From: Candidatus Omnitrophota bacterium
GTDB taxonomy: Bacteria; Omnitrophota; Gorgyraeia; Duberdicusellales; 4484-171
Assembly: GCA_043815185.1 (NCBI GenBank)
Contig: JBDRJF010000001.1
Coordinates: 89,690 to 153,689 of the forward strand
Length of the DNA: 64,000 nt
Direction of reading: 5' to 3'
In this document: positions 4,374 to 40,998 of the stretch, in pieces
Layout: every line of letters starts with the position of its first letter
Numbering within the stretch: the first letter of the stretch is position 1
Program-made: the position numbers and the translations under genes
The notes under the pieces: model-generated
Seen by the model: only the letters and a program-made list of their open reading frames with translations
What the model was told of the DNA's origin: nothing
The model's database searches: none

Positions 4374-4424
4374 CGATTTCAGCGTCTAAATCTACCTCTT
4401 GAGACTACCCAACATAACCAACCA

Positions 4425-4433
4425 ATTATACCA
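4425..4433 (-). promoter_or_regulatory. extended -10 promoter element (TGGTATAAT on the minus strand) upstream of rfaE-kds operon
   Basis: The minus strand reads ...attacaaTGGTATAATtgg about 50 nt upstream of the rfaE start. No good -35 was seen. Confidence 0.35.
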
Positions 4434-4469
4434 TTGTAATAAAAAAAATCTACAATAAAACTTGATAAT

Positions 4470-5594
4470 TTACAGGAAGGAGCTGGAGACAGTATCAGCG
4501 AAACAAAAGCCCTTTTTAGTCAAACAAACTCCGGTTATTTGCTTATTTTTCCGGCGGTATTTAAGCAGTCCCTTAGCTAAAAGCTGGGCCAAAGCCTTAT
4601 TTTCTAAACTGGGAAAGTCATAGCCGGTACGCTGCTTAAACCACTCAAAATCTATACCCTCTTTAGTTCTCACCTTGATCGCAGCTAGTTCCTGAGCCTG
4701 CCGCCGTTTCGACAAAGATTCACTAAAGACAACCGGATTTTGGCCCCTATTTAGACGTTCTATATATTCAATAACACCAGAAATATTCCTCTCTCGCTTA
4801 CCCCCAATAAAAGATACTGCTGCCGGCCCTAAGCCTAAATAGGAGTTCCCTTGCCAATAATTCATATTATGTTGGGATTCAAACCCTGGCTGGGCAAAGT
4901 TAGAGATTTCATAGTGTTCAAATCCCTGCTGGGTAAGATAATTAACAGCACCGGTATACATTTTAGCCAGAATGCCGTCATCGAGAGGCGTGATAAACTT
5001 CCGCTTAATCTGCAAAAATAAGGGAGTATTTTTCTCATAAGTCAGGCAATAGGTTGAAATGTGATTGATGCCGGATGAAACTGCCTGCTTTAATTCAGCC
5101 AGCCAATCAGCTAAGGCCTCTCCGTCTGCGCCGAAAATTAAATCAACCCCCAGGTCCTTAAACCCGGCTCTTTTCGCCAGTTTAATTGCCCGCATTGCTG
5201 CTTCCGAATTATGAGCTCGGCCTAACTTTTTTAACTTGGGATCAAAGAACGACTGAACACCTATACTGATCCGGTTAACTCCCGCTTCAATAAATAACTT
5301 AAGCTTATCCTGGTCAATGCTTTCAGGATTAACTTCAATGGTAAACTCACGCAAATTCCTTGATATTAACCGCAAACTTCCTAATAATTTTTTCAAACTG
5401 GTTATACTTAAGCTGCTCGGGGTTCCTCCTCCGATATAAAGAGTCGAAAAATCGCTGCCTAAACCGGCTATTTGCCGGCACAAAACTTTTAGGTAAGCAG
5501 CAGCTAAACGCGAATCATAGACCAGGCTATAAAAATCACAATAAGGGCATTTTTTACTACAAAAAGGTATATGAATATATAATGATTTCGGCAT
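4470..5594 (-). CDS. hemW: radical SAM heme chaperone / oxygen-independent coproporphyrinogen oxidase-like protein
   Basis: YIHIPFCSKKCPYCDF radical SAM motif, GGGTPS, and a C-terminal HemN_C-like region. Confidence 0.8.
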   Translation of the reverse strand: MPKSLYIHIPFCSKKCPYCDFYSLVYDSRLAAAYLKVLCRQIAGLGSDFSTLYIGGGTPSSLSITSLKKLLGSLRLISRNLREFTIEVNPESIDQDKLKLFIEAGVNRISIGVQSFFDPKLKKLGRAHNSEAAMRAIKLAKRAGFKDLGVDLIFGADGEALADWLAELKQAVSSGINHISTYCLTYEKNTPLFLQIKRKFITPLDDGILAKMYTGAVNYLTQQGFEHYEISNFAQPGFESQHNMNYWQGNSYLGLGPAAVSFIGGKRERNISGVIEYIERLNRGQNPVVFSESLSKRRQAQELAAIKVRTKEGIDFEWFKQRTGYDFPSLENKALAQLLAKGLLKYRRKNKQITGVCLTKKGFCFADTVSSSFL

Positions 5595-5615
5595 TTGTGC
5601 TATAATTATACCTCA

Positions 5616-7028
5616 ATGGAAGAACTTTGCAAAAACTTAAATCACGACCCCCTGCCTAACCGCTTGAAAAAGTTAATCGGAGATACCTTTTCTCTTGGCT
5701 TGAGTCAAAATCAATTGCGCGATTTAACCCGGCTTATCTTCGAGATTGTCCGAAGAAAAAAAATTAGCCCCCAGGAAATTATTGCTGATCTGAAGAAAAA
5801 TGTTCCCAGCCCGAAGTATCCCGGAAAGAATAAATTCCGGGCTTTAAAAAATATCCTGATCAACTATCGTTTTCCTGAAACAGCCAAATACGGCCGAATC
5901 GATAGTAAAAAAATATTCCTAAGCCAACTGAGAAAACCTTTAGCCAACAATTGGCAAGTGGCGGAACAGTTTAAGCCTTTGAAGATCATTGTGGAGCGGG
6001 CAGCCAAACAAAGCCGTCTCTTGGCTAACTTCCAGCGAAAGTTTCCTGATGCTGAGGTTGAAGAAATTGATTATTATAGCCGCTATTTAACCGGGAATAA
6101 ATTTAGGGTTTCTCAGTTAAAAAAACCTCTGGTATTTATCATCAAAGAAAGGGGTGACTTTATAAAAAGATGCCCCTGTACTAAAGGCCACCTAAACTGC
6201 GGCTACTGGATATTCAATCTCGGTTTTGGCTGCCCTTTTGACTGCTCCTATTGTTTTCTCCAGCAATATAGTAACTTTCCGGGAATAATTTTGCCGGCGA
6301 ATATTGAGGACTTTTTGGTTAGTTTTGATAAATTTTACCGGAATCTAAAAAAACCGACCAGAATTGGAACCGGTGAATTCTCTGACTCGCTGGCTCTTGA
6401 TGACATAACTGAATACTCACAACTTCTAATTCCCTACTTTGCCCAAAAAAACCTTCTCTTTGAGCTTAAGACAAAAAGCAACAAAATCACTAACCTGCTT
6501 AAGTTAAAAATCTCTTCGCCAAGGATTATCATCTCTTGGTCTTTAAGCCCGCAGGCGATTATTGCCGGTGAGGAAAAAGGAACTGCCAGCTTAGATCTGA
6601 GACTGGAAGCCGCCAAAAAGATTCAACAGGCCGGATTCCGGGTCGGCTTTCACTTTGACCCGATTATCCATTTAGAAGGATGGGAGAAACTATATGAGGA
6701 ACTGATCAATAAGTTATACGCCTATCTTTTGGGCCCTTTCGCCTGGATAAGTTTAGGTACTTTGCGCTGCCGGCGCCAGCTAAAAACAATTGCCGAGTTG
6801 CGCTTCCCCCAAAGCAATATCTTTTACGGAGAGTTATTCCTGGGGAAAGATAAAAAACTGCGTTACCCTGGATTTATCCGGGATGAAATCTACCGGAAAA
6901 TAATTAAAGGGATAAGAAACTTTGATCAGAAGACCCCGATTTATCTCTGCATGGAAGACAAACCAACCTGGGCTAACCAGAAGGGATTGGTCCCAACTTC
7001 TGATGTCGCAGGCTCCCTTATTGCCTAG
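5616..7028 (+). CDS. SPL (spore photoproduct lyase)-family radical SAM protein with about 120-aa N-terminal extension
   Basis: GCPFDCSYCFLQ (CxxxCxxC) lies in a context collinear with B. subtilis SplB as I recall it (ATGCMGHCHYCYLQ). The track ORF starts at TTG 5595; the ATG at 5616 is preferred. Confidence 0.7.
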   Translation: MEELCKNLNHDPLPNRLKKLIGDTFSLGLSQNQLRDLTRLIFEIVRRKKISPQEIIADLKKNVPSPKYPGKNKFRALKNILINYRFPETAKYGRIDSKKIFLSQLRKPLANNWQVAEQFKPLKIIVERAAKQSRLLANFQRKFPDAEVEEIDYYSRYLTGNKFRVSQLKKPLVFIIKERGDFIKRCPCTKGHLNCGYWIFNLGFGCPFDCSYCFLQQYSNFPGIILPANIEDFLVSFDKFYRNLKKPTRIGTGEFSDSLALDDITEYSQLLIPYFAQKNLLFELKTKSNKITNLLKLKISSPRIIISWSLSPQAIIAGEEKGTASLDLRLEAAKKIQQAGFRVGFHFDPIIHLEGWEKLYEELINKLYAYLLGPFAWISLGTLRCRRQLKTIAELRFPQSNIFYGELFLGKDKKLRYPGFIRDEIYRKIIKGIRNFDQKTPIYLCMEDKPTWANQKGLVPTSDVAGSLIA

Positions 7029-23973: not shown

Positions 23974-24909
23974 TTAAAATGTCTTAGCTGTAAACATCAG
24001 CCAATTATCTTTTGCCAAATTCTTTATTTTAGACAGAGAAAAATTGTCAAAGATTGTGTACAGTGCGCTCCCGGAACCGGTTACCTTGGTAAAAATACCT
24101 TCTCCAGCTAAGAGTGCTTTCGCACTTCTTAACTCCTTACAAACAGCCAGAGCGCTTGGCTCTAAAGCATTGAAAATATTCGCCTTAATTAAATGAATAT
24201 CTCCTTTTTTTAGAGCATACCGCAATATCTTAGCATTATTAAAAAATTTTGTCAATTCCTGCCTGCCGCCTGTCTTGTGGTAAACAGGACAAGGCAGGTT
24301 ACTTTCGAGTCTTTCATAAACCCTTTTAGTAGATAGGGATATTCCCGGCCAGATAATAAGATAACGGAATTTAGGCTTTACTTTAAAAGGGGTTACTCTC
24401 TGCCCTCTCCCCTCAAGAAAGGCAAATTGGCTCTCAGAGAGGAAAAAATTGACATCACTACCAAGCTTTGGGCCTAATCGATAAAGCTGATCAGGTTTTA
24501 AACCCAATTTAAGCAGTTCGTTTATCCCTAAAAGGACACTGGCAGCATTAGAAGAACCTCCTCCTAAACCGGCCCCGATAGGGATATTCTTTTTAAGGAA
24601 AATATCAAAGCCAAAAGGAATCTTAAATTTCTTTTGCAGAAGTTGTGCAGCCTTAAATACAAGATTCCCACTGGTTTCTAAACTCTTATTGTTTGAAGAT
24701 ATCTTTATTGTCGGGTCCGGCAGGATTCTGATTGAAATCTGATCCGCTAATGAGATGCGTTCAACAATACTCTCTATACGATGGAACCCATTTGAATACT
24801 TATCCTTTATATTAAGGTAAAGGTTTATTTTGGCGGGGCTTAAAATTCTAATCTTACTACCGCAACAACTTTTCTGCTTTCTCAGCGATAAAATTAGCGG
24901 AGAGGCCAT
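23974..24909 (-). CDS. ispE: 4-diphosphocytidyl-2-C-methyl-D-erythritol kinase
   Basis: SPAKINLYLNI and the GHMP motif PIGAGLGGGSSNAA. The start overlaps the transketolase C subunit by 53 nt, so the exact start is uncertain. Confidence 0.85.
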   Translation of the reverse strand: MASPLILSLRKQKSCCGSKIRILSPAKINLYLNIKDKYSNGFHRIESIVERISLADQISIRILPDPTIKISSNNKSLETSGNLVFKAAQLLQKKFKIPFGFDIFLKKNIPIGAGLGGGSSNAASVLLGINELLKLGLKPDQLYRLGPKLGSDVNFFLSESQFAFLEGRGQRVTPFKVKPKFRYLIIWPGISLSTKRVYERLESNLPCPVYHKTGGRQELTKFFNNAKILRYALKKGDIHLIKANIFNALEPSALAVCKELRSAKALLAGEGIFTKVTGSGSALYTIFDNFSLSKIKNLAKDNWLMFTAKTF

Positions 24910-25783
24910 AAAAATCCATCAACTCCTGAGGTGAACCGGATTGACCAAACTCATCCTCTACCCCTACACGCTCCACTTGCGTCGGGTATTTACGAATCAG
25001 CACTTCAGCTATGGCTGAAAAGAGACCACCGGTAACCTGATGCTCCTCACAAACAAGAACCTTCTTATGTTTTTTAGCAACAGACACAAGTAAATCCTCA
25101 TCAATCGGTTTTATAGTGTGAAGATTTACTACAGTTGTTGATATGCCCTTCTTTTTTAAGATTTCCGCTACCATTAAGGCTTCATAAACCATAACACCAC
25201 AGGCGATTATTGCTAAATCTTCACCCTCCTCAATTATCTGTCCCCTCCCAAACACAAACTTATCTTTCATAGCAAGGGTGGGAACTTTTGAACGGCTTAA
25301 ACGAATATAAAATGGTCCCGGATTTTTATAAGCAGCGATAACTGCTTCTTTGGTCTGAGGGGCATCAGCAGGAACAACTATTTTCATGTTAGGAATTGCC
25401 CGGAAAAAATTAATATCCTCCAAAGCTTGGTGTGATGCCCCATCTTCACCTACGCTTATCCCCCCGTGGGTAGCCACAATCTTAACATTAAAGTTGCTGT
25501 AACAAATTGTGTTTCTGACTTGATCCAGGGCCCGGGCCGTAGCAAACATAGCAAATGTAGAAGCAAAAACGATTTTATTGCAACTAGCTAAACCAGCAGC
25601 AGCAGCCATCATATTCTGTTCGGCAACACCAAAATTAAAAAACCGCTCGGGAAACTCCTGGGCGAAAAAGGAAGTACGGGTTGAACCGGAAAGGTCAGCA
25701 TCTAAAACGACTATATTCTTATCCTTCTTACCCAGCTCTAGGAGTGTCTTACCGTATACGTCACGGGCGTATAATTTTTCCAT
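24857..25783 (-). CDS. transketolase, C-terminal (pyrimidine-binding) subunit
   Basis: FNFGVAEQNMM and HGGISVGEDGASHQ motifs. About 308 aa, the split form. Confidence 0.9.
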   Translation of the reverse strand: MEKLYARDVYGKTLLELGKKDKNIVVLDADLSGSTRTSFFAQEFPERFFNFGVAEQNMMAAAAGLASCNKIVFASTFAMFATARALDQVRNTICYSNFNVKIVATHGGISVGEDGASHQALEDINFFRAIPNMKIVVPADAPQTKEAVIAAYKNPGPFYIRLSRSKVPTLAMKDKFVFGRGQIIEEGEDLAIIACGVMVYEALMVAEILKKKGISTTVVNLHTIKPIDEDLLVSVAKKHKKVLVCEEHQVTGGLFSAIAEVLIRKYPTQVERVGVEDEFGQSGSPQELMDFYGLSANFIAEKAEKLLR

Positions 25784-25816
25784 TCTTTAGTTTATTTAGT
25801 TTTTATTATTTATATT

Positions 25817-25865
25817 GTTAATATAGTTTAAAACAAACTAAACCAACTAAATCAACTATATTAAC
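25817..25865. repeat. 12-bp perfect inverted repeat (GTTAATATAGTT / AACTATATTAAC) in the spacer between the transketolase subunits
   Basis: Read directly. The arms are at 25817..25828 and 25854..25865, and TTTAGTT-type direct repeats lie in the loop. Confidence 0.6.
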
Positions 25866-25876
25866 TAAAATAACTA

Positions 25877-26704
25877 TTAACCGTTTTTGTCTAGTTCGCC
25901 TAAAGCGATATCTCTTTCTTCTTCAGTAGGAGCCCTTCCGTGAAAATCAACCACATGTTCCATAAAGGATACTCCTTTACCCTTAACCGTGTTAGCAATA
26001 ATTACTGTCGGTTTTTGCTTAATTATTTTTGCTTCCTCAAATGCTTCCAGCAACTCGGCGATATTGTGTCCATCACATTGAATTACATGCCAGCCAAAAG
26101 ACTCCCATTTCATGGCTAAAGGGGCTAGTTCCATTATCTCTTCAATCTTTCCGTCAATCTGAAAGTGATTATAGTCAACTATCCCACAGAGGTTGTCTAA
26201 TTTAAAATGGGCTGCTGACATTGCTGCTTCCCAGATATTCCCTTCCTGAAGTTCACCATCGCCCATAAGACAGTAAACGCGGTAATTGCGCTTATCAATC
26301 TTTGCTGCCAGGCTCATACCACAAGCAACCGATAGACCCTGGCCTAAAGAACCACTAGCTACTTCTATACCGGGAGTACCGCAATCAGGATGACCCTGAA
26401 GAAGACAGCCAAGTTTTCGTAAATGCATCAACTCGTCAGTAGAAAAATACCCACACAGGGCTAAAGCCGAATAAACAACCGGACAGCAATGCCCCTTAGA
26501 AAGATGGAATCGGTCTCGATCTAACCAACCAGGTTCCTGGGGATTATGATTCATAACTTCGAAGTAAAGACAAGTGACAACTTCGGTTGCCGAGAGAGAA
26601 CCTCCGGGGTGCCCACTCTTAGCTTCGGTTAACATCTTAATGATAAGTTTTCGAATTGTATTGGCTTTATTCTCCAGCAGCCTTATTTTATTCCTCATGT
26701 TCAT
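25877..26704 (-). CDS. transketolase, N-terminal (TPP-binding) subunit
   Basis: SGHPGGSLS and GDGELQEGNIWEA motifs. Confidence 0.9.
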   Translation of the reverse strand: MNMRNKIRLLENKANTIRKLIIKMLTEAKSGHPGGSLSATEVVTCLYFEVMNHNPQEPGWLDRDRFHLSKGHCCPVVYSALALCGYFSTDELMHLRKLGCLLQGHPDCGTPGIEVASGSLGQGLSVACGMSLAAKIDKRNYRVYCLMGDGELQEGNIWEAAMSAAHFKLDNLCGIVDYNHFQIDGKIEEIMELAPLAMKWESFGWHVIQCDGHNIAELLEAFEEAKIIKQKPTVIIANTVKGKGVSFMEHVVDFHGRAPTEEERDIALGELDKNG

Positions 26705-28835: not shown

Positions 28836-28867
28836 ACCCTCTCCCTTTTTGGGGGGAGGGTTTCTTT
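28836..28867 (+). terminator. GC-rich hairpin with T-run on the plus strand only (orphan terminator-like)
   Basis: ACCCTCTCCC-ttttt-GGGGGGAGGGT followed by ttcttt. There is no T-run in the minus orientation. Confidence 0.35.
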
Positions 28868-28911
28868 AAATAAAAATGGTGTTCTGATCCTAAAGATAAA
28901 AACACCATTTT
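28868..28911 (-). terminator. intrinsic terminator candidate after the purF-like gene
   Basis: Minus strand: AAAATGGTGTT-17 nt loop-AACACCATTTTtatttaaag. The stem is AT-rich and the loop is large. Confidence 0.45.
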
Positions 28912-28941: not shown

Positions 28942-30390
28942 TTATTTTGATTGCTGATGGGCCGGGCAACTCGTGCCTTTACCTTCTGTTTGAGCTGGAC
29001 ACTTACCAGTCCAACAATAAAGACAAAGTTTTTCCTTGGGCAGACCGATCGCTTCAACCATATCGTCTACGGTTTGATACCTTAAAGTAGTAACCCCTAA
29101 ATCTCTGGCAATCCAGTCTACCATCTGCTTATATTTCTCAGAAGTGCAATCAGTATATTCACAAACATCTTCTAAATCATTACCTTCAATAGCTCGTATA
29201 GCTTTTCGAGCAGCAAGCTCATGGATACTACGCGTGGATAAGTTAAACCGGCAAGGGAACATTAAAGGGGGGCAAGCCGGCCTTACGTGAACCTCTTTGG
29301 CTCCCGAATCCCAGAATTTCTTTATGGTGAAATTCTTGAGCTGGGTTCCTCTTACTATAGAATCATCACAAACAACAATCTTGTTACCTTCAATTATCTC
29401 CTTTATGGGAATAAGCTTCATCTTAGCAACTAAATCACGTGTTTCTTGAGAAGGTGGAGTATAGCTTCGGCCATATCCCGGTGTATATTTTATCAAGGGT
29501 CTGCGGTAAGGACTACCGCTCTCCATGGCATAGCCTATTGCATGGGCAGTCCCGGAATCGGGGACTCCCGAAACTACATCTACCTTTAGATTTTTATCGC
29601 GCCGGGCCAGAATACGTCCGCATCTTTCTCTTACTACTTCGGTATTGATTCCCTCATAATCTGAGGCCGGAAATCCAGTATAAATCCATAAAAATGCACA
29701 GATTTGATTTGCTTCCCTGCCAGGTTTTTTCTCCTTCATTCCTTGCTCAGTTATCAGGATTATTTCACCCGGCCTTAAGTGCCTGATTATCTTAAAGTCA
29801 CTATTAGGGAAAGCGCAAGTCTCAGAAGTAACAGCCAAAGCATCATCCCGTTCACCAACCACAAGGGGTGTATAACCGAATCGATCTCTGGCTGCATATA
29901 TTCCATCCTTATGCAGCAATAGCAGCGAACAGGAACCCTTTATCTTGTCAAACATCTTCTCTATACCGTCGACCAAATCATTCCCCTGGCTGATCAGTTT
30001 TGCTATCAGCTCGGTAGTATTAACCCCGCCCTTGCTTACTTCAGTAAAAGATACTCCCTGATTAAAAAGACTGGCTGTTAATTCTTCGGTATTTTCGATA
30101 AATCCGTTGGTAACTAAACAAAAGGGGCCAAATTTAGAGTTTAAATACATCGGCTGCTCTTCAAAAGCGCTAATCACCCCAATACCTTTATTACCTTTCA
30201 TCTGCTTGTAGTCATCATGGAATTTTGACTTGAATTGGCTCTGAGATATTTTATGTATTTGCCGTATAAGCTCTTTTCCCAAAACTGCCATACCCCCATA
30301 TTCGGTTCCTAGATGGGAGTGATAATCGGTACAATAAAATAAAAGATCCATGCAATCCTTTTGTGAAACTACGCCACAAATTCCGCTCAT
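28942..30390 (-). CDS. PurF-like class II (Ntn) glutamine amidotransferase / phosphoribosyltransferase
   Basis: MSGI-CGVV gives an N-terminal Cys after a short propeptide. It has the PRTase loop VVCDDSIVRGTQ, and C-terminal CLYCWTGKCP resembling the Fe-S type PurF CxxCFTGKYP. The glutaminase-domain R/G motifs are diverged. Confidence 0.7.
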   Translation of the reverse strand: MSGICGVVSQKDCMDLLFYCTDYHSHLGTEYGGMAVLGKELIRQIHKISQSQFKSKFHDDYKQMKGNKGIGVISAFEEQPMYLNSKFGPFCLVTNGFIENTEELTASLFNQGVSFTEVSKGGVNTTELIAKLISQGNDLVDGIEKMFDKIKGSCSLLLLHKDGIYAARDRFGYTPLVVGERDDALAVTSETCAFPNSDFKIIRHLRPGEIILITEQGMKEKKPGREANQICAFLWIYTGFPASDYEGINTEVVRERCGRILARRDKNLKVDVVSGVPDSGTAHAIGYAMESGSPYRRPLIKYTPGYGRSYTPPSQETRDLVAKMKLIPIKEIIEGNKIVVCDDSIVRGTQLKNFTIKKFWDSGAKEVHVRPACPPLMFPCRFNLSTRSIHELAARKAIRAIEGNDLEDVCEYTDCTSEKYKQMVDWIARDLGVTTLRYQTVDDMVEAIGLPKEKLCLYCWTGKCPAQTEGKGTSCPAHQQSK

Positions 30391-30460
30391 TTCAGCTCCT
30401 CCATTATTATTCCCATTATTATTTTAAATACTCCCATCGCGCTACTTAATAGCTTACAGT

Positions 30461-31978
30461 TTATGTCACAAAAAGACTCTTGGAAGAAAAGTTCGGTGCA
30501 CTAGTAAGATTAACTCCCAGTTTACGTAACCCTGCCTCATCTCCCGGGGTAGGCATATGAGTCGTATGTACCTCACAACCTCCGAGCTCTTTAAGTTTCT
30601 CCATAGCCAATTGAGCTGTAGGATTTGTAGCGCTACTGATACTCAAAGCAATTAAAGCCTCTTCCAAATCTAAACTTATTGTCTTTGTACCGGAAAGATT
30701 CTTTTTCAACCTTCCTATTGATTCGATTATAGTCGGTGATAAAAGGTGGATCTTATCCGGTATCTCACCTAGCTTCTTTATAGCATTAAATACAAGACTA
30801 GCTGTTGCATGCATGAGATCTGAGTTCTTACCGGTAACAATAGAACCATCTCTAAGTTCTATGGCCGCACCACAAAAGACACCTTCGTGTCCCTTCTTTT
30901 TCTCTTCAGCCTCTTTAAGCGCATCGTTCGCGGGTTTAACTACCCGGCGATCTTCGGGGCGAAGATTAAGCTCCTCCATAAGTTGTTCGACTCTCTGAAC
31001 TGTTCCTTTGTCGCTAAAACCTATGGCATATTCGCATCTATACCTAAAAAACCGGCGTATAATCTCCTGTTTGGCAGCATCTCTGACTACCGCATCATCG
31101 ATAATTCCGAAACCAGCTCTATTCACCCCCATGTCGGTAGGAGATTTATATATTGCTTCATCTCCGGTGATTTTCTCCAATATCCGCTCAAGAAGAGGGA
31201 AAGCATCAACATCCCGATTGTAATTAATTGCTGTCTTCTGGTAAGTTTCCAAGTGAAAAGGATCAACAAGGTTAAAGTCTCTTAGATCAGCTGTAGCTGC
31301 TTCATAAGCTATGTTAACCTCGTGCTTAAGAGGAAGATTCCAAATGGGAAAGGTCTCGAACTTTGCGTAACCTGCCTTTACTCCTCTTTTATATTCATGA
31401 TAAAGCTGACTAAGGCAAGTAGCAAGTTTCCCGCTTCCTGGGCCTGGGCCGGTAACTACTACTAAGGGCTTCTCGGTCTCAATATAAGTATTCGCACCGT
31501 AGCCTTCATCGCTTACAATTAAATCGACATCTGTAGGGTAACCCTTGGTAAAAAAGTGAGTATAAACTCTAATGTTTCTGCGTTCTAATTTATTTTTGAA
31601 AATTATAGCTGAGGCCTGATTATCAAAACGGGTTATCACCACTGCTGCTATATTAATATCCCAGCTTCTTAAATCATCGATAAGTTTTAAGGCATCGACA
31701 TCGTAGGTAATGCCAAAATCTGCCCGGACCTTCCTTCTTTCAATGTCACCGGCATAGATACAGAGGATAATGTCTGCTTTACCTTTAAGCTTCTGCAAAA
31801 GTCTCATTTTTACGTTAGGGCCAAATCCCGGTAAAACCCTTGAAGCATGGTAATCAAAAACAATCTTGCCGCCAAACTCTAGATAAAGTTTATTATTAAA
31901 CCGCTCAACCCGTTCTAATATAGCGCCTGTCTGCTCTTTAAGGTATTGTTCATTATCAAAACCTGACCGCTTTAGCAT
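30461..31978 (-). CDS. DUF1846 / UPF0371 family protein (P-loop containing)
   Basis: [15 protein letters not shown]...[25 protein letters not shown] and [15 protein letters not shown] closely follow the UPF0371 pattern as I recall it from streptococcal proteins. Confidence 0.8.
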
Positions 31979-32047
31979 CGCTACCCCTTTTAATATTATC
32001 GTCTTTTATTTACTGGTAAAACTTATGCGAGTCATTTCAAGTTTTCT

Positions 32048-35000
32048 TTACACTATTTCTCTATGATACTCCTGAAGAGATTTTAGTGAGATTTTCTTGT
32101 TCTTAAGAGCTTCTATTCCTTCAAGACTGGCGGAAGCCGCAGCCATAGAGGTAATATAAGGAACCTTCTGTTGTATGGCCATAATACGGATATAACTATC
32201 ATCAGTCTTGCTATCCCTTCCCACCGGTGTATTTATGATAATGTGAATGTCTCCGTTTTTAATTGCATCAGCAAGGTTAGGTCTTCCTTCATGAAGCTTC
32301 TTCACCTCTGTATTATTTATTCCGTTTTCCTTAAGAAAGCGGCTAGTTCCTATTGTAGCATAGATATTAAACCCGAGTTTGCTAAACTCTTTGGCTATGT
32401 TAAGTAACTCCGGTTTGTCTTTGTCGGTTACGGTAAGCAAAGCATTTCCCTCTATAGGAAGCTTTAAGTTAGCTGCTGCTTGAGCTTTATAAAAAGCAAT
32501 CCCAAAGGTATCGCCGATTCCCATCACCTCTCCGGTAGCCCTCATCTCAGGGCCAAGTAAAGGGTCTACTTCCGGAAACATATTAAAGGGGAAAACTGCC
32601 TCTTTAACTCCTACGTGAGAAATCTTACGGGGCTTCTGAAGCTCGGGAAAATCTTTTATCTTTTTGCCCACCATTAATTGAGTTGCTATCCGTGCTATGG
32701 AGAGTCCCATGACTTTTGAAACTAACGGTACCGTCCGAGATGCCCGAGGATTAGCTTCCAGAACATATACTTTATCATCACAGATAGCGTACTGGATATT
32801 CATCAATCCAACAACCTTAAGTTCCTTTGCTATTTGAACTGTGTACTTCTTAATAAGCTTTAGATGCTCCTCTTTTATGGTTCTGGTGGGAATCGCACAA
32901 GCAGAATCGCCGGAGTGGACACCGGCAAGTTCTATATGTTCCATCACCGCTGCAACATATACATCCTCTCCGTCAGAAAGAGCATCGACTTCTGCCTCAA
33001 CAGCATGTTCCAGGAATCTGTCAATAAGCATAGGAAAATCGGGGCTCACTTTGATTGCTTCCTGAGCATACTTTTCTAGCATCGTCTGATTATAAACAAT
33101 TTCCATACCCCTGCCTCCCAAAACAAAAGAAGGGCGTACCATAAGCGGGTATCCGATCTTATTGGCAATTTTTATCGCCTCATCTAAAGAACGGGCTGTA
33201 CCGCTCTCGGGCTGGGGAATATCCAGGGCAATCAAGCTTTGCCTAAAATATTCTCGATCTTCGGCTAAACGAATACTTTCCGGCGAAGTGCCGATAATTT
33301 TTAAACCGTTATCTTTCAACTCCTGAGCTATATTCAAAGGAGTTTGGCCGCCAAACTGGACAATAACTCCTTCGGGCTTTTCTTTTTCATAGATAGTTAA
33401 CACATCTTCTACGGTCAAAGGTTCAAAATAGAGTTTGTTAGAAGTATCATAATCAGTAGATACTGTCTCAGGGTTACAATTTATCATAATTGATTCATAG
33501 CCTTCATCCCGCAGGGCAAAAGCAGCATGAACACAGGTATAATCAAACTCTATTCCCTGACCGATCCGGTTAGGTCCTCCGCCTAAAATTAATATTTTCT
33601 TATTTGGCGATACCGACACCTTATCTTCTCCGATATAGGTTGAATAATAGTAAGCGGCATTTTCTACTCCGCTAACCGGAACAACATCGTAACGACCGTT
33701 CTTCTTAAGCCTAATTCTCCTTTCTCTTACTTCTTTCTCCTTCAGCTTAAAAAGCTGAGCTAAATACTTATCTGAGAATCCCAGCTCTTTTGCCTTAATC
33801 AGCTCTCCATCAGCTAAATCTTTCCATTTATTTTTAATTATCGCTTCTTCGAAATCGACAAGCTCCTTCATCTCCCGAATAAACCAAGGGTGGATATAGG
33901 TAACTTTATGAAGCTCCTCAACAGAAATACCTCTGCGTAAAGCTTCATAAATTAAGAATATTCGCTCACTGGAGGGAGCGCTTAACTTGCCTTTTAACTT
34001 GGACAGAGGAAAAGCTTTGAATTCTTCAACACCTAAACCGTACCGGCCTATTTCCAAAGAACGAATAGCTTTCTGAAAAGCCTCTTTGAATGTCTTACCG
34101 ATACTCATTACCTCACCAACAGCCTTCATCTGGGTTCCTAAAATATCCTTGGCTTGAGGAAACTTCTCAAAGGCCCAGCGGGCAAATTTAACAACCACAT
34201 AATCACCGCTAGGTTCATACTTCTCCAAAGTCCCTTCTTTCCAGTAAGGAATCTCATCCATTGTTAGACCGGCAGCTAACTTTGTTGAAATACGGGCTAT
34301 CGGAAAGCCGGTTGCTTTGGAAGCAAGAGCTGAAGAACGCGATGTTCTGGGGTTAATTTCGATAACTACTATTCGATCATCCTTAGGGTTGTGAGCAAAC
34401 TGAATATTTGTTCCGCCAACAACCCCGATTGCATCAACTATCTTGTAGGAATATTCCTGCATTTTATCCTGTAACTCTTTTTTTACGGTAAGCATCGGGG
34501 CAGAACAAAAGCTATCTCCGGTATGAACACCCATAGCATCAATATTTTCGATAAAGCATACGGTAATTTTCTGATTTTTATGATCCCGTACCACTTCCAG
34601 TTCTAATTCTTCCCAGCCGATAACTGCTTCTTCAACTAGAACTTGATGAACAAGACTTGCCGCTAAGCCACGAGTTACAATAATCCTTAATTCCTCTACA
34701 TTGTAAGCAATTCCTCCTCCGGTTCCGCCCATGGTGTAAGCCGGCCTTAATACCACCGGGTAGCCTATCTTCTGGGCTATAGCCTCAGCGGCTTCAACCG
34801 AATGGCTAATTTCCGATTCAGGAAGAGGAATTCCTAATTTCTTCATTGTCTCTTTAAAAATCAGACGATCTTCCCCGCGTTCAATAGCATCAACTTTAAC
34901 CCCGATAATTTTAACCTCGTATTTGGCTAAAATTCCTGCTTTATGAAGACTGGAGGAAAGATTAAGGCCGGTTTGCCCGCCTAAATTAGGCAGCAGAGCA

Positions 35001-35251
35001 TCGGGACGTTCCCGCTTAATAATGGCCTCTAAGCTTTCGATAGTGAGCGGCTCAATATAAGTTTTATCAGCCATACCGGGGTCGGTCATAATCGTTGCCG
35101 GGTTGGAATTAACCAAAACAACTTCATAGCCTTCTTCTTTTAAAGCCTTGCAGGCTTGAGTACCAGAATAATCAAATTCACAGGCTTGCCCGATAATTAT
35201 CGGCCCGGAACCAATAATTAAAACTTTTTTAATATCCTCATATCGCGGCAT
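32048..35251 (-). CDS. carB: carbamoyl-phosphate synthase large subunit
   Basis: 1067 aa with duplicated ATP-grasp halves. N-terminus VLIIGSGPIIIGQACEFDYSG; second half ILILGGGPNRIGQGIEFDY. Confidence 0.95.
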   Translation of the reverse strand: MPRYEDIKKVLIIGSGPIIIGQACEFDYSGTQACKALKEEGYEVVLVNSNPATIMTDPGMADKTYIEPLTIESLEAIIKRERPDALLPNLGGQTGLNLSSSLHKAGILAKYEVKIIGVKVDAIERGEDRLIFKETMKKLGIPLPESEISHSVEAAEAIAQKIGYPVVLRPAYTMGGTGGGIAYNVEELRIIVTRGLAASLVHQVLVEEAVIGWEELELEVVRDHKNQKITVCFIENIDAMGVHTGDSFCSAPMLTVKKELQDKMQEYSYKIVDAIGVVGGTNIQFAHNPKDDRIVVIEINPRTSRSSALASKATGFPIARISTKLAAGLTMDEIPYWKEGTLEKYEPSGDYVVVKFARWAFEKFPQAKDILGTQMKAVGEVMSIGKTFKEAFQKAIRSLEIGRYGLGVEEFKAFPLSKLKGKLSAPSSERIFLIYEALRRGISVEELHKVTYIHPWFIREMKELVDFEEAIIKNKWKDLADGELIKAKELGFSDKYLAQLFKLKEKEVRERRIRLKKNGRYDVVPVSGVENAAYYYSTYIGEDKVSVSPNKKILILGGGPNRIGQGIEFDYTCVHAAFALRDEGYESIMINCNPETVSTDYDTSNKLYFEPLTVEDVLTIYEKEKPEGVIVQFGGQTPLNIAQELKDNGLKIIGTSPESIRLAEDREYFRQSLIALDIPQPESGTARSLDEAIKIANKIGYPLMVRPSFVLGGRGMEIVYNQTMLEKYAQEAIKVSPDFPMLIDRFLEHAVEAEVDALSDGEDVYVAAVMEHIELAGVHSGDSACAIPTRTIKEEHLKLIKKYTVQIAKELKVVGLMNIQYAICDDKVYVLEANPRASRTVPLVSKVMGLSIARIATQLMVGKKIKDFPELQKPRKISHVGVKEAVFPFNMFPEVDPLLGPEMRATGEVMGIGDTFGIAFYKAQAAANLKLPIEGNALLTVTDKDKPELLNIAKEFSKLGFNIYATIGTSRFLKENGINNTEVKKLHEGRPNLADAIKNGDIHIIINTPVGRDSKTDDSYIRIMAIQQKVPYITSMAAASASLEGIEALKNKKISLKSLQEYHREIV

Positions 35252-35346: not shown

Positions 35347-35375
35347 ATTATCCGATAAATTTGGCTAATAGTCAA
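35347..35375 (-). promoter_or_regulatory. sigma70-like promoter TTGACT-17-GATAAT for carB
   Basis: The minus strand reads TTGACTattagccaaatttatcgGATAAT, with an A/T-rich stretch upstream. Confidence 0.5.
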
Positions 35376-35468
35376 GAAAAAAAATAACCTTTTTTTTATC
35401 TAAAAAATCTTAAAAAAGCTAATATTTATAGGCATTCTTGCATGGTGTAAAAAAAAATAAAAAACTAC

Positions 35469-35497
35469 TTGACAAGTGTAAAGTAATAGTTTACACT
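35469..35497 (+). promoter_or_regulatory. sigma70-like promoter TTGACA-17-TACACT for the HTH-glnA gene
   Basis: TTGACAagtgtaaagtaatagttTACACT. It is overlapped by the inverted repeat at 35472..35500. Confidence 0.45.
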
Positions 35498-35500
35498 TGT
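35472..35500. promoter_or_regulatory. perfect 11-bp inverted repeat ACAAGTGTAAA-N7-TTTACACTTGT (candidate operator)
   Basis: Read directly. It spans the -35/-10 spacer and the -10 of the glnA promoter. Confidence 0.6.
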
Positions 35501-35512
35501 AATGTAGAATGA

Positions 35513-35666
35513 AGCTTAGGTTTACAGAACAAAGTGAAAGTAAACCTTTAGCTGAATTCACCCGAAACATTCTTTAAAAATTTCATAGAAATTTTTAAAG
35601 TATTTAGATGTTTCGGGATAATTCGCACTTATCACTTATGTTCACTTCGTTCCGTAAGTGATGTGC
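35513..35666 (+). promoter_or_regulatory. structured 5' UTR of HTH-glnA (three adjacent hairpins)
   Basis: P1 at 35513..35553 (AGCTtAGGTTTAC/GTAAACCTttAGCT). P2 at 35554..35624 (GAATT, CCCGAAACA and a 12-bp CTTTAAAAATTT stem). P3 at 35625..35666 (GCACttATCACTTA/TAAGTGATGTGC). The Shine-Dalgarno sequence is left unpaired. Confidence 0.45.
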
Positions 35667-35683
35667 TCATTAAAGGAGGAAAA

Positions 35684-37219
35684 ATGGAACAGGAATATTT
35701 AAGCCCGACTCAAGCCGCTAAAATTCTAAAAATATCCCGTCAAGCAGTTATTGAACGCATAAAACATGGAGCCCTTTACGCTGAGCGGGTGGGAAAACGA
35801 TATATAATCCCCCGGGGTGAACTTCCCACCGAAGATGCTCTCTTAAAAGATCGGAAAACCAAAACAAACATTTCCTTGGAGAGTAAGAAGAGCCGGAAGG
35901 ATATGATAAGAAAAGTTTTAGAAAAGGTGCATCGGGAAAATATAAAGACCATACAGCTCTGGTTTGTGGATATCTTAGGAACCTTAAAATGCGTTTCGAT
36001 TACCCAAAGAGAATTAAAAGATGCTTTAGGCCATGGCAAGGGGTTTGACGGTTCTTCTGTTACCGGTTTTGCCGAAGCTGAAGAAAGTGATATTGTTGCT
36101 TTGCCAGATCCTGCCACTTTTAAAGTCTTGCCTTGGACGATTGAAACCGGTCCTATTGCCAGAATGCTCTGCGATATACTCAGCCCTGATTTTACCCCTT
36201 ATGCTGGTGATAGCCGCTATGTTCTTAAAAGAGCCTTGGCCCGGGCAAAGAAGTTAGGCTTTACTTTCTATGTCGGACCAGAGTTAGAATACTTTTACTT
36301 TAAGTCTGCTCGAAAACCAGAAATTATAGACGAAGGTTCTTACTTTGAGCTAATACCCAACGATTTAGCCAATACCTTAAGAAATAAAACCGTAAAAGTC
36401 TTAGAAGAGATGGGTATACCGATGGAGGCAACCCACCATGAAGTTGCCCCTTCACAACATGAAATTGACCTAAAATATAACGATGCTCTTACTATGGCTG
36501 ACAACGTAATAACTTGTAAATATGTGATCAAGGAAATTGCCCAACAGAATGGCGTCTATGCTACTTTTATGCCCAAACCCCTCTTTGGAGTGAATGGTTC
36601 AGGAATGCATGTTCACCAATCGTTGTTTAAGGGCAGCCAAAATTCTTTCTTTGATAAAAAAGACAAGTATCACCTTTCATCCGTGGCCAAAGGATTCATT
36701 GCTGGTGAACTAAAGCATGCCCGGGAAATTTCCTCTCTAACTGCTCAGTGGGTAAATTCCTATAAACGTCTGGTTTCCGGGTATGAAGCGCCGGTATATG
36801 CTTCCTGGGCTCAAAAAAACCGTACTGCTCTGCTGCGAGTTCCGGTATACCGGCCGAGAAACGAAAAAGCAACCCGGGTAGAATTACGCTGCCCTGACCC
36901 CGCTTGCAACCCCTACTTAGCCTTTGCCGTAATGCTAGCAGCCGGGTTGGAAGGTGTAGAAAAGAAATATCAGCTTCCTCCTGCTGTTGAACCTAATATC
37001 TACCGGATGGCTATGGAAGAAAGAGAACGAAGGGGGCTTACCTCACTTCCCGGGAATCTTTTTGAAGCCATTATTGAAACTGAAAAAAGTACCTTTGTGC
37101 GGGAAACTTTGGGAGCCCACATCTTCAACAGATTCTTGTTCAATAAAAAGAAAGAATGGGAAGATTACCGGATCCAGATTACTGAACATGAAATTAAGAA
37201 ATACCTTCCCCTGCTCTAG
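35684..37219 (+). CDS. glnA: type I glutamine synthetase with N-terminal excisionase/MerR-type HTH domain
   Basis: ATG 35684 follows an AAGGAGG Shine-Dalgarno sequence (the track start GTG 35663 is rejected). Residues 4-48 (EYLSPTQAAKILKISRQAVIERIKHGALYAERVGKRYIIPRGEL) look like HTH_17. From about aa 85 it is a full GS (QLWFVDILG, GSGMHVHQS, NRTALLRVP). Confidence 0.85.
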   Translation: MEQEYLSPTQAAKILKISRQAVIERIKHGALYAERVGKRYIIPRGELPTEDALLKDRKTKTNISLESKKSRKDMIRKVLEKVHRENIKTIQLWFVDILGTLKCVSITQRELKDALGHGKGFDGSSVTGFAEAEESDIVALPDPATFKVLPWTIETGPIARMLCDILSPDFTPYAGDSRYVLKRALARAKKLGFTFYVGPELEYFYFKSARKPEIIDEGSYFELIPNDLANTLRNKTVKVLEEMGIPMEATHHEVAPSQHEIDLKYNDALTMADNVITCKYVIKEIAQQNGVYATFMPKPLFGVNGSGMHVHQSLFKGSQNSFFDKKDKYHLSSVAKGFIAGELKHAREISSLTAQWVNSYKRLVSGYEAPVYASWAQKNRTALLRVPVYRPRNEKATRVELRCPDPACNPYLAFAVMLAAGLEGVEKKYQLPPAVEPNIYRMAMEERERRGLTSLPGNLFEAIIETEKSTFVRETLGAHIFNRFLFNKKKEWEDYRIQITEHEIKKYLPLL

Positions 37220-37310: not shown

Positions 37311-38666
<1,356 letters not shown>

Positions 38667-38679
38667 TTAAAATATTTTA

Positions 38680-40098
38680 TTACTTTTGAGAAAGATGTCT
38701 AATTATTCCTTGGCATGCCTTCTTTGCCATACCCATAGCTTCGATGACTGTTCCTTCTCCTCCGACAATATCTCCTCCGGCAAATACACCCTTTACAGAA
38801 GTCTCCATACTTTCCGAATCTACTTCCAGATCGCCGTATTTATCAACTTTTAAATCCGGAGTAACACTAGTCAAGACTCTGTTGGCGCCTAAACCCACTG
38901 CCACTATAGCTAAATCGCAATGATTTTCAAAATCACTGCCTTCAATAGGTAAAGGCCTCCTTCGCCCCGATTCATCCGGCTCACCCAAGCGGCACTCTAA
39001 AGATCTTATTTTCTTCACAAAACCTGAGCCATCACTGCTAAACTCCTGGGGCTGAACTAAAAATTTAAAAAGAACTCCTTCTTCCTTAGCATGCTCAATC
39101 TCTAAGCGCCTTGCCGGCATCTCAATTTCTCTACGTCGATAAAAGATTGTTACGCTCGGCTTAATTCCCTTTATCTTCTGCAGGCGCAAAGCAACTCGGG
39201 CCGCATCCATAGCGGTATTACCTCCACCGATAACAACCATATTCTCACCGACATTAATCGGAGTATGGAATTGAGGGAATTTATATGCTGACATAAGATT
39301 TACCCGAGTTAGAAACTCATTAGCCGAATAAACATTGCAGAAATTCTCACCCTTTATCTTTAAAAAAGATGGCACACCAGCGCCTAAACCTAAAAATACC
39401 GCTGAAAACCTCTCTCTGAAAAGTTCATCCAAAACCTTGGTTCTTCCGATAATAAGATTAGGTATAAATTCCACTCCTAACTTTTTAAGATAGTCTAGCT
39501 CAAAGTCTAAAATATCCCGCGGTAACCTGAAAGGCGGAATGCCATATCTTAAGACTCCTCCGGTTTTATGTAACCCTTCAAAAATAACTGATTGTATACC
39601 CTGGCGGCTTAATTCTCCAGCTACAGACAAACCAGCCGGCCCGGAGCCCACAATTGCTACTTTAAATTTAGAAAACCTTCCTTTTTTTTGCAAAGGAACT
39701 TCTAAATTATTCCTGATCCCGTAATCACCGACGAACCTCTCTAGAAAATGAATGTTAATTGCTTCCTCGGAAGCAAAAGGTAAACCCTTTTTACTAAATA
39801 CACAAGTCTTCCGGCATTGATACTCAGCCGGACAAACCCTTCCGCAGATAGAAGGAAAATCATTCTTTTCTCTAATCTTAAAATAAGCTCCCTCATAGTC
39901 TTTCTCTGTAATCTGGGCGATGAATTTCTTTATATCTATTTCTACCGGACAACCATCAATACAAGTAGGATTCTTACATTGAATACAGCGCTTAGCTTCA
40001 AGAAGAGCCTCTTCTTCATTGTAGCCAAGAGCAACTTCTTCAAAGTTACTTGCTCTAACTTTCGCCTCTAATTCTCTTATTCTTACCGGTTCTTTCAT
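38680..40098 (-). CDS. nfnB: GltD-like NADPH-dependent oxidoreductase, large subunit (NfnB / SudA type)
   Basis: N-terminal Cys clusters CIQCKNPTCIDGCP, VAIVGSGPAGLSVA, and a second GGGNTAMD fold. Paired with a PyrK-like subunit. Confidence 0.75.
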   Translation of the reverse strand: MKEPVRIRELEAKVRASNFEEVALGYNEEEALLEAKRCIQCKNPTCIDGCPVEIDIKKFIAQITEKDYEGAYFKIREKNDFPSICGRVCPAEYQCRKTCVFSKKGLPFASEEAINIHFLERFVGDYGIRNNLEVPLQKKGRFSKFKVAIVGSGPAGLSVAGELSRQGIQSVIFEGLHKTGGVLRYGIPPFRLPRDILDFELDYLKKLGVEFIPNLIIGRTKVLDELFRERFSAVFLGLGAGVPSFLKIKGENFCNVYSANEFLTRVNLMSAYKFPQFHTPINVGENMVVIGGGNTAMDAARVALRLQKIKGIKPSVTIFYRRREIEMPARRLEIEHAKEEGVLFKFLVQPQEFSSDGSGFVKKIRSLECRLGEPDESGRRRPLPIEGSDFENHCDLAIVAVGLGANRVLTSVTPDLKVDKYGDLEVDSESMETSVKGVFAGGDIVGGEGTVIEAMGMAKKACQGIIRHLSQK

Positions 40099-40101
40099 TT
40101 C

Positions 40102-40163
40102 ATGGATACAATCTATCGGTTGAGGCTTAGCCTCAACCGGCTCCGCCTTCGGCGGAGATTGTA
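40102..40163 (-). repeat. copy B of the two-hairpin intergenic element (first copy at 18856..18916)
   Basis: Minus strand: TACAATCTCCGCCGAAGGCGGAGCCGGTTGAGGCTAAGCCTCAACCGATAGATTGTATCCAT. It occupies essentially the whole nfnA-nfnB spacer. Confidence 0.7.
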
Positions 40164-40167
40164 TACC

Positions 40168-40998
40168 TCATAACTTGTAAAGATTACAAATATGTTTCTC
40201 TTTGTCCTCGTATACCTTATTCCTCTTAATTAGCTCATCCCAATCGATTAGAGAAGCATCAAATTCCGGACCATCTACACAAGTAAATTTGACTACTCCA
40301 TCCACGGTAACCCGACAACCTCCGCACATACCAGTAGCATCAATCATCAATGAATTTAATGATACTAAAGTCTTTATCCCCGAATCTTTAGTGACTAACG
40401 AAACTTTTTTCATCATCGGGACCGGGCCAACAGCATAAATAAGACCATGCTGCTCCTTACTAATAAGTTCTTTTAATATATCGGTAGTAAATCCCTTCTG
40501 ACCGCAAGAGCCGTCGTCAGTAGCGATAAGTAGCTCATCAGAAACTGTTTTTAGCTCCCCTTCTAAGATTAAGAGATCTTTTGTCCTTGCTCCCAGTATA
40601 GTAGTCACCTGATTCCCGGCAGCCTTTAACTCTCTAGCTGCCGGATAGATCTCGGCAATACCGACCCCTCCTCCTACTAAAATTACCTTCCCGTATTTTT
40701 TTATCTCGGTATGGTGGCCTAAGGGGCCAACTAAAGCGTAGAGGGACTCACCGATCTCTAAGCGGCCTAGGAGCTTAGTAGTCAACCCTACCTCTTGGAC
40801 AATTAAGGTGATAGTGCCGTCTTCTGTATCTTTCTCAACTACGGTTAACGGCACTCTTTCCCCGACTTCCGATACCATCAAAATTACGAATTGACCCGGC
40901 TTTGCTTTTTCAGCAATATCGGGAGCGACTACCTTTAATTGAGTAATCCTTACCCCTAAAGCATCAACTAAGATATTCTTTTCCACTATTTTTGCCAT
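40168..40998 (-). CDS. nfnA: PyrK-like FAD/[2Fe-2S] electron-transfer subunit (NfnA / SudB type)
   Basis: Ferredoxin-reductase fold (GQFVILM, VGGGVGIA) and C-terminal MCGGCRV...CVDGPEF. Confidence 0.75.
   Translation of the reverse strand: MAKIVEKNILVDALGVRITQLKVVAPDIAEKAKPGQFVILMVSEVGERVPLTVVEKDTEDGTITLIVQEVGLTTKLLGRLEIGESLYALVGPLGHHTEIKKYGKVILVGGGVGIAEIYPAARELKAAGNQVTTILGARTKDLLILEGELKTVSDELLIATDDGSCGQKGFTTDILKELISKEQHGLIYAVGPVPMMKKVSLVTKDSGIKTLVSLNSLMIDATGMCGGCRVTVDGVVKFTCVDGPEFDASLIDWDELIKRNKVYEDKEKHICNLYKL

Follow-up and report, generated by a model that had tools for sequence, protein, structure and literature searches.

A stretch of 64,000 nucleotides from a Candidatus Omnitrophota bacterium (contig JBDRJF010000001.1; the whole stretch is called the 64-kb window below) carries three consecutive full-length open reading frames (ORFs) on the minus strand: carB, pyrJ (DUF1846) and a gene for a PurF-like protein whose glutaminase domain has no nucleophile cysteine. 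They lie at exactly the coordinates and on the strand given in a first-pass annotation of this DNA. We propose, with moderate confidence, that what looks like an operon of these genes serves as a glutamine-bypass route for nucleotide precursors, in which each of the encoded enzymes would be fed with free ammonia. The proposal starts from what was observed: the identities of the genes, the motifs that were lost or retained, the fold, the separation of the PurF-like clade and the recurrent linkage. We infer NH3 as the donor for CarB and for the PurF-like enzyme, and that PyrJ acts in this organism as it does in pneumococcus.

Bacteria are usually taken to depend on glutamine as nitrogen donor at the start of both purine and pyrimidine synthesis. 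This view has been questioned one step at a time, by separate work on an orphan CarB2, on PyrJ and on a Cys-less PurF'. In the window all three candidates, which are counterparts of CarAB, PyrG and PurF, occur side by side and next to gdhA, a gene for low-affinity ammonia assimilation; this association strengthens the single assignments and leads to the glutamine-bypass reading. CarB without the CarA glutaminase would make carbamoyl phosphate from NH3, bicarbonate and 2 ATP, and PyrJ would convert UTP and NH3 to CTP. The PurF paralogue would make phosphoribosylamine from phosphoribosyl pyrophosphate (PRPP) and NH3 at a conserved phosphoribosyltransferase (PRTase) site, and its N-domain would no longer hydrolyze glutamine.

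The cysteine-less PurF paralogue

The PurF-like protein (28942..30390, minus strand, 482 aa) had been recognized in the first-pass annotation by its PRTase loop (VVCDDSIVRGTQ) and by an Fe-S type C-terminus (CLYCWTGKCP), and both features are indeed present. Pfam detected only the class II amidotransferase domain in it. The score on TIGR01134 was 229 bits, which is under the cut-off of 350, whereas canonical PurFs of neighboring genes scored 489-540 bits. A neighbor-joining tree (midpoint-rooted) placed the window protein in a 50-member clade without any sequence that has both the Cys and QHRG. The phylogeny that had been suggested for this protein, together with its score below the family cut-off, thus separates it from orthodox PurF. 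The overall fold was nevertheless that of PurF: an AlphaFold2 model had a pLDDT of 89, and Foldseek matched it over the full length to B. subtilis PurF (1AO0) with a TM of 0.81-0.86. This model was built from a 48-sequence alignment over two clades; 12 near-identical sequences had given a pLDDT of 50, and that model was discarded.

Residue statistics were based on 196 relatives of the PurF-like protein, and 11 canonical PurF neighbors were used for comparison. In alignments with B. subtilis PurF (HMMER) and with canonical PurFs (MAFFT), the position of the nucleophile Cys1 corresponds to Ser2 of the PurF-like protein (MSGIFGV vs CGVFGI). This position is Ser in 193 of the 196 relatives and Cys in all 11 canonical neighbors. 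The nucleophile had initially been assigned to a Cys that follows MSGI, an assignment that has to be withdrawn: that residue, Cys5, aligns with canonical Phe4, a column occupied by Phe in 179 and by Cys in 13 of the relatives. There is no in-frame Cys before the ATG of this gene, and a TAA stop codon is located 12 codons upstream; therefore, a mis-called start does not hide the nucleophile. Residues that bind glutamine are also missing in the family, with Leu or Met in place of Arg26, the Arg73-Tyr74 segment deleted and Asp127 absent. The oxyanion-hole Asn-Gly is present in the window protein (N95-G96), and its Asn is kept in 137 of the 196 relatives. In the wider family (representatives clustered at 50% identity), a DYHSHLG motif is kept and residue 2 is Ser, Gly, Thr or Ala. 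Thus, no N-terminal nucleophile is conserved.

The PRTase half presents the opposite picture. The PRPP loop (DDS-VRGT) and its DS motif are intact, with D343, S344, R347, G348 and T349 invariant among the relatives. The four 4Fe-4S cysteines known from B. subtilis PurF all have counterparts in the alignment, C456 being invariant and C231, C380 and C459 being Cys in 194-195 of the 196 sequences. Previous studies of E. coli PurF showed that the C1S and C1A variants lose glutamine activity and keep NH3 activity (Mei and Zalkin 1989, cited in Brown et al. 2011, PMC3261824). Ammonia dependence was likewise proposed for the Cys-less PurF' of Crenarchaeota and for Mlab_0150 of Methanocorpusculum, which has Ser instead (Brown et al. 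2011, PMC3261824). In the literature, we found no biochemical test of any Cys-less PurF. Judging from its residues, the PurF-like protein is predicted to be an ammonia-dependent PRPP amidotransferase.

One of the two interpretations offered in the first-pass annotation was that the class II amidotransferase supplies ammonia, that is, that its domain is a surrogate glutaminase handing ammonia to CarB or to DUF1846. It is true that the three genes adjoin and that no carA is found in the window. However, the nucleophile is replaced by Ser (by Gly, Thr or Ala elsewhere in the wider family), the glutamine-binding Arg and Asp are absent, the corresponding C1S mutant of E. coli has no glutamine activity (cited in PMC3261824), and it is far more common for PyrJ and CarB to have no PurF-like protein nearby. 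We consider a surrogate glutaminase highly improbable.

The N-domain has features of its own. Nine of its invariant residues are new to the PurF-like family (D22, Y23, H24, S25, H26, K54, K56, S74 and N124), and its mean identity is 69%; where the same genomes encode a canonical PurF, the N-domain of the latter reaches 62%. A private invariant motif and such strong conservation would be odd for an idle domain and hint at another function, which speaks against a simple loss of glutamine hydrolysis. As an alternative, the PurF-like protein may be regulatory or may have no catalytic activity; it might form mixed tetramers with PurF or might sense purine nucleotides or PRPP and tune the flux without making any phosphoribosylamine. 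This would agree with the conserved new motif, with the frequent occurrence of canonical purF in the same operon and with the retention of a fold that makes the tetramer in PurF. We nevertheless find it unlikely, as the essentially invariant PRPP loop, DS motif and four Fe-S cysteines are the pattern of an active PRTase, and as no canonical purF was found near the PurF-like gene in the window or in four of the loci fetched for comparison (L027, L057, L164 and L165).

It might also be that the N-domain is a hydrolase, with the N-terminal Ser or DYHSH acting on a small amide or amino donor that feeds the PRTase, or that the product is something other than phosphoribosylamine. Other N-terminal nucleophile hydrolases can work with an N-terminal Ser, the residues that were lost are only those that hold the amino-acid end of glutamine, and the constraint on the N-domain is stronger than in canonical PurF. 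But sister clades in which DYHSHLG is retained have Gly, Ala or Thr as residue 2, so that the N-terminal nucleophile is not conserved, and the oxyanion Asn is variable. A hydrolase of this kind appears quite improbable to us.

CarB without an adjacent carA, and PyrJ

The carB gene (32048..35251, minus strand, 1067 aa) codes for the large subunit of carbamoyl-phosphate synthase (CPS). As first annotated, it is full length: all domains are present (Pfam CPSase_L_D1/D2 twice, the oligomerization domain D3 and the MGS-like allosteric domain), and the protein scored 1535 bits on NF003671 (cut-off 599) and 1397 bits on TIGR01369 (cut-off 1027). A tblastn search of the 64-kb window with a verified CarA query gave no match at E<=1e-3, in agreement with the earlier statement that carA is absent from it. 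Close relatives of this CarB are 78-89% identical and come from Omnitrophota, Chloroflexota and Nitrospirota.

Two types of CarB could be distinguished among all fetched loci, one at least 66% identical to the window protein (designated type W here) and the other 52-54% identical. In all 12 type W loci with readable upstream sequence, carA was found neither upstream nor elsewhere in the locus, whereas carA was directly upstream of carB in 5 of 5 loci of the other type (12-0 vs 0-5, exact test ~2e-4, with some of the loci being close relatives and not all independent). In a Dehalococcoidia metagenome-assembled genome (MAG; L166), the order is pyrR, pyrBI, pyrC, two unrelated genes in the usual carA slot, carB and pyrK. 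The two genes in that slot (L166 7867-9898) are a DUF6414 gene and a gene for a 362-aa protein, and the pair looks like an inserted two-gene cassette. The possibility that the 362-aa protein is a degenerate CarA was rejected, as its sole match was a weak PLD-like one. No class I glutaminase was found among the small ORFs upstream of carB in L027. Both types of CarB occur in L095, in the order carB (type W), carA, carB, purF, pyrJ and pyrG, with guaA and purL further on; pyrJ and pyrG thus adjoin in this contig.

Other neighbors of carB were recorded as well. A hisF-like gene (288 bits, cut-off 294.55) directly follows type W carB in L160 (4152-4991), and the operon in the window is followed by hisG. 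In another Omnitrophota MAG, carB, the PurF-like gene and pyrJ are directly preceded by a gene for hydroxylamine reductase (hybrid-cluster protein; L047 5017-6645). Hydroxylamine reductase releases ammonia and would suit an ammonia theme at that locus.

An orphan carB has been analyzed genetically in Bacteroides thetaiotaomicron, where CarB2 is needed at high ammonium and CarAB only at low ammonium, and an ammonium-dependent CPS was proposed (Liu et al. 2021, PMC8121099).

The second protein (pyrJ, 30461..31978, minus strand, 505 aa) is a DUF1846/UPF0371 member with a GPGPGSGK loop, as had been noted from the sequence. It contains PF08903 (E 1.4e-166) and PF20921 (E 1.7e-54) at full length and scored 758.6 bits on NF010184 (cut-off 631). 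It could be aligned end to end with the structures from S. pneumoniae (7F00, E 5e-152, residues 2-499) and C. diphtheriae (3BH1, E about 1e-152), and the P-loop-like GPGPGSGK is aligned and identical in the pneumococcal protein. The family had been described in the first-pass annotation as having no established function, which is outdated. Spd_0310, the DUF1846 protein of S. pneumoniae, is synthetic-lethal with pyrG, and cytidine rescues the double mutant; purified Spd_0310 formed CTP from UTP when given ammonia but not when given glutamine, and it was named PyrJ (bioRxiv 10.1101/2024.09.24.614635). The window protein is accordingly named here, and its domains and loop lead us to predict an ammonia-dependent CTP synthase. 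The first-pass annotation had also pictured a purine/pyrimidine precursor operon with an ATP-dependent DUF1846 step. The type of operon and an ATP-dependent amination agree with the present data, but the step would be that from UTP to CTP, if the PyrJ preprint is followed, and not one beside PRPP amidotransfer. In L164 (13301-14819), the DUF1846 gene is split between ORFs of 375 and 142 aa, probably through a frameshift or an assembly error.

A more conventional explanation is an ordinary operon: carA, canonical purF and pyrG would be elsewhere in the genome, CarB would pair with CarA and use glutamine, and the clustering would reflect co-regulation only. CarB indeed scores as a standard equivalog, canonical purF is found in some Omnitrophota, pyrJ and pyrG are adjacent in L095, and there are ordinary bacteria in which carA is not linked to carB. 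On the other hand, the 12 type W loci have no carA beside carB, in contrast to 5 of 5 loci of the other lineage, and even the classic pyr operon of L166 has unrelated genes in the carA slot. In addition, PyrJ is ammonia-only in vitro (bioRxiv 10.1101/2024.09.24.614635), the PurF-like protein has no glutaminase residues, and gdhA repeatedly adjoins the operon. An ordinary operon is therefore a serious possibility, but a somewhat doubtful one.

Linkage in other genomes and layout of the locus

Carriers of the PurF-like protein were scanned with one genome per species, and neighboring genes were counted in the 80 best loci. At least 596 species have the protein (58-78% identity to the window protein), including members of Omnitrophota, Planctomycetota, Elusimicrobia, Thermodesulfobacteriota, Clostridia and Spirochaetales and, in archaea, Thermoplasmata and Methanosarcinales. 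One or more nucleotide-synthesis genes were found near the PurF-like gene in 33/80 loci. The neighbors were purM (15 loci), canonical purF (12), pyrJ (8-9), carB (7), purD (6) and a guaA C-terminal-only gene (5). The recurrence of pyrJ and carB in several phyla is what the first-pass annotation had proposed to look for. The canonical purF neighbors scored 489-521 bits, and the order purF, purM, PurF-like was common; some Omnitrophota (L044 and L064) carry canonical purF too. A sister clade is present in gut Oscillospiraceae, and its Dysosmobacter member is located inside a pur operon (purE, PurF-like, purC, purF, purM, purN, IMP cyclohydrolase, AICAR formyltransferase, purD and purL). Dysosmobacter and Lawsonibacter, which can be cultured, have members of an MGGFFG clade. 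Because canonical purF is often nearby, as in the Dysosmobacter operon, proteins of the PurF-like family are paralogues that occur alongside true PurF in such carriers.

The whole arrangement of the window is repeated in L164 and L165, with nfnA, nfnB, gdhA, divergent glnA, carB, pyrJ, the PurF-like gene and hisG, and the carB-pyrJ-PurF-like trio is also present in L027 and in L057 (a Planctomycetia MAG). Of 80 metagenomic pyrJ loci, 7 had carB in the vicinity, 6 had gdhA and one had the PurF-like gene. Pairs of these genes recur at roughly 10%, in differing orders, orientations and phyla, which clearly exceeds the ~1% that a rough estimate gives for any one gene within 10 kb, although most loci do not show the pairing.

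Several additional genes were detected at these loci. A stand-alone gene for the C-terminal (ATP pyrophosphatase) part of GMP synthase, with no glutaminase half, is located near the PurF-like gene in L020, L021, L035 and L040, and in L021 (8983-9945) it is directly upstream of it; a fifth match to the GMP synthase C-terminal probe, in L057, is a 530-aa ORF. This gene may be a fourth ammonia-route enzyme, or it may be part of a plain two-subunit GuaA. In the metagenomic loci L131 (9531-10925), L146 (9413-10933) and L155 (7634-9025), gdhA and pyrJ are closely followed by a gene for a beta-CASP/metallo-beta-lactamase ribonuclease-like protein, whose matches to the models of Cas14 and aCPSF1 did not reach the respective cut-offs. 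In L130, a 1076-aa ORF without an NCBIfam match (2919-6149, minus strand) adjoins pyrJ and a divergent PurF-like gene whose product is 52% identical to the window protein and scored 178 bits on TIGR01134.

Within the window, the spacers between the three genes are 69 and 70 nt, as first reported, and each gene is preceded by a Shine-Dalgarno sequence. The scan for terminator-like sites on the minus strand found none within either spacer, which agrees with the earlier observation that no terminator occurs until after the purF-like gene. Two hairpins are located 3' of the PurF-like stop codon (28837..28909, minus strand; sequence reading and scan) and likely mark the end of the operon. The first (AATGGTGTT...AACACCATT, then TTTTATTT) is weak, having an A+T-rich stem and a 17-nt loop; the second, flagged by the scan, is G+C-rich, and a T-run is present there as well. 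A consensus scan, that is, a pattern match only, gave a promoter-like site (TTGACT-17-GATAAT, 35347..35375, minus strand) ~95 nt upstream of carB, and hisG, downstream of the operon, has its own strong promoter-like site in the same scan. An Rfam scan of the window found no riboswitch or leader, and one tRNA only. When verified CarA, PurF, PurM, PurD, GuaA C-terminal, PurL and PurQ sequences were used in tblastn searches of the 64-kb window, only the PurF-like gene was matched (31% identity).

Profile matches placed a nitrogen-assimilation cluster (37311..40998) beyond carB, which consists of gdhA (37311-38651), a gltA/nfnB-like gene (38680-40098) and an nfnA-like gene (40168-40998), all on the minus strand. 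Between this cluster and carB, and divergent from the latter, is glnA (35663..37219, plus strand; Pfam/NCBIfam profiles), which codes for a type I glutamine synthetase with an N-terminal helix-turn-helix (HTH) domain. The domain is HTH_17, of MerR/excisionase type (residues 12-54, Pfam E 6e-7), and the fusion is kept in the relatives L164 (8059-9663) and L165 (6407-7936), which have the same synteny. From its domain composition, the fusion protein could be a GlnR/TnrA-like regulator of its own gene. A near-perfect palindrome (ACAAGTGTAAA-N7-TTTACACTTGT, 35465-35507) overlaps the glnA promoter-like site and is a possible operator to which the fusion protein would bind. None of the 166 fetched loci contains an exact copy of the palindrome; a similar ACAATTGTAAA...TTTACAATTGT is present upstream of HTH-glnA in L165 (7984-8022), where other genes separate glnA from carB. 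The idea of an operator shared by glnA and carB was dropped, since the palindrome sits on the glnA promoter and a similar one occurs where glnA is not beside carB; it therefore does not show that the carB operon is regulated. In the glnA leader (35554-35624), right before the start codon, there are nested inverted repeats with arms of 17 and 16 nt, for which Rfam has no matching family. On the far side of the operon, downstream of hisG and a TPR-repeat gene, transketolase is split (24857-26704, minus strand) into an N-terminal gene (25877-26704) and a C-terminal gene (24857-25783), and the same arrangement was observed in L164 and L165.

The proposed ammonia route and related systems

Located beside gdhA, the gltA-like gene and glnA, a glutamine-bypass route would fit an energy-limited anaerobe from ammonium-rich water or sediment, which would not have to pay the ATP cost of glutamine synthetase for each amide. 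If the proposal is true, metabolic models of anaerobes overstate the need for glutamine and ATP, and the regulation of nucleotide synthesis by nitrogen status needs revisiting. It also offers a concrete candidate function, open to testing, for a PurF-like family of at least 596 species, abundant gut Oscillospiraceae included, which is now annotated simply as amidophosphoribosyltransferase.

Besides the conserved N-domain, several points weigh against the glutamine-bypass reading. The sequence that was read is the 64-kb window, and carA, canonical purF and pyrG may lie elsewhere in the genome, in which case the genes of the operon might simply be extra copies. The carA and carB genes of some ordinary bacteria are unlinked, so that missing adjacency is no proof of independence, and in L095 the carA located just downstream of type W carB could serve both carB genes. 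The likeness of the window CarB to Bacteroides CarB2 is one of gene context. About 90% of the PurF-like loci, and most PyrJ loci, do not have the other two genes nearby. The presence of canonical and Cys-less purF within one operon misfits a simple switch between isozymes for high and low ammonium. Finally, the function of PyrJ comes from one preprint (bioRxiv 10.1101/2024.09.24.614635), and an earlier paper described the Spd_0310 protein as a hemin carrier.

A bolder version of the proposal would take the conserved N-domain into account. The DYHSHLGT region may be a rebuilt site which captures and deprotonates ammonium, or hydrolyzes a donor other than glutamine, and feeds the old ammonia channel. 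Combined with orphan CarB and PyrJ, such an enzyme would give a complete glutamine-independent purine/pyrimidine route in energy-limited anaerobes of hundreds of species, which annotation pipelines would have missed. We offer this version tentatively and regard it as rather unlikely.

Each of the three proteins may be compared with a known system. The PurF-like protein shares with canonical PurF (B. subtilis, PDB 1AO0/1GPH) the two-domain fold, the PRPP loop, the flexible loop and the four Fe-S cysteines. It differs in being only ~30% identical, in the absence of Cys1, Arg26, Arg73-Tyr74 and Asp127 and in its score below the family cut-off. Its relatives resemble the archaeal PurF' and Mlab_0150 in the missing N-terminal Cys, in their location among purine genes and in their coexistence with true PurF. 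In contrast to the archaeal proteins, the PurF-like clade is mostly bacterial, has an invariant DYHSHLGT and B. subtilis-type Fe-S ligands and extends over at least 596 species, and the window gene is tied to pyrimidine and nitrogen genes.

Mitochondrial CPS I is an analogous case, being an ammonia-using amidotransferase with a folded but inactive glutaminase domain, in which the change is from Cys to Ser; it is a different enzyme, and its glutaminase belongs to another class than that of the PurF-like protein. The ammonia specificity of CPS I was ascribed to mutations in the glutaminase subunit (cited in Liu et al. 2021, PMC8121099). The window CarB resembles CarB2 (BT3866) in that a full-length carB has no adjoining glutaminase gene, and the related contig L095 pairs type W carB with carA-carB, as B. 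thetaiotaomicron has both; the fitness data come from B. thetaiotaomicron, and the window CarB was compared with CarB2 by gene context. With S. pneumoniae PyrJ, the window protein shares the two Pfam domains, the length and the GPGPGSGK loop, but its gene shares an operon with those for CarB and the PurF paralogue and comes from a candidate phylum of Gram-negative type. A literature search found no paper that joins CarB2, PyrJ and PurF' or describes their combination. Each part of the proposed route has a precedent in CarB2, PyrJ or PurF', and it is the combination that is new, rather than the category.

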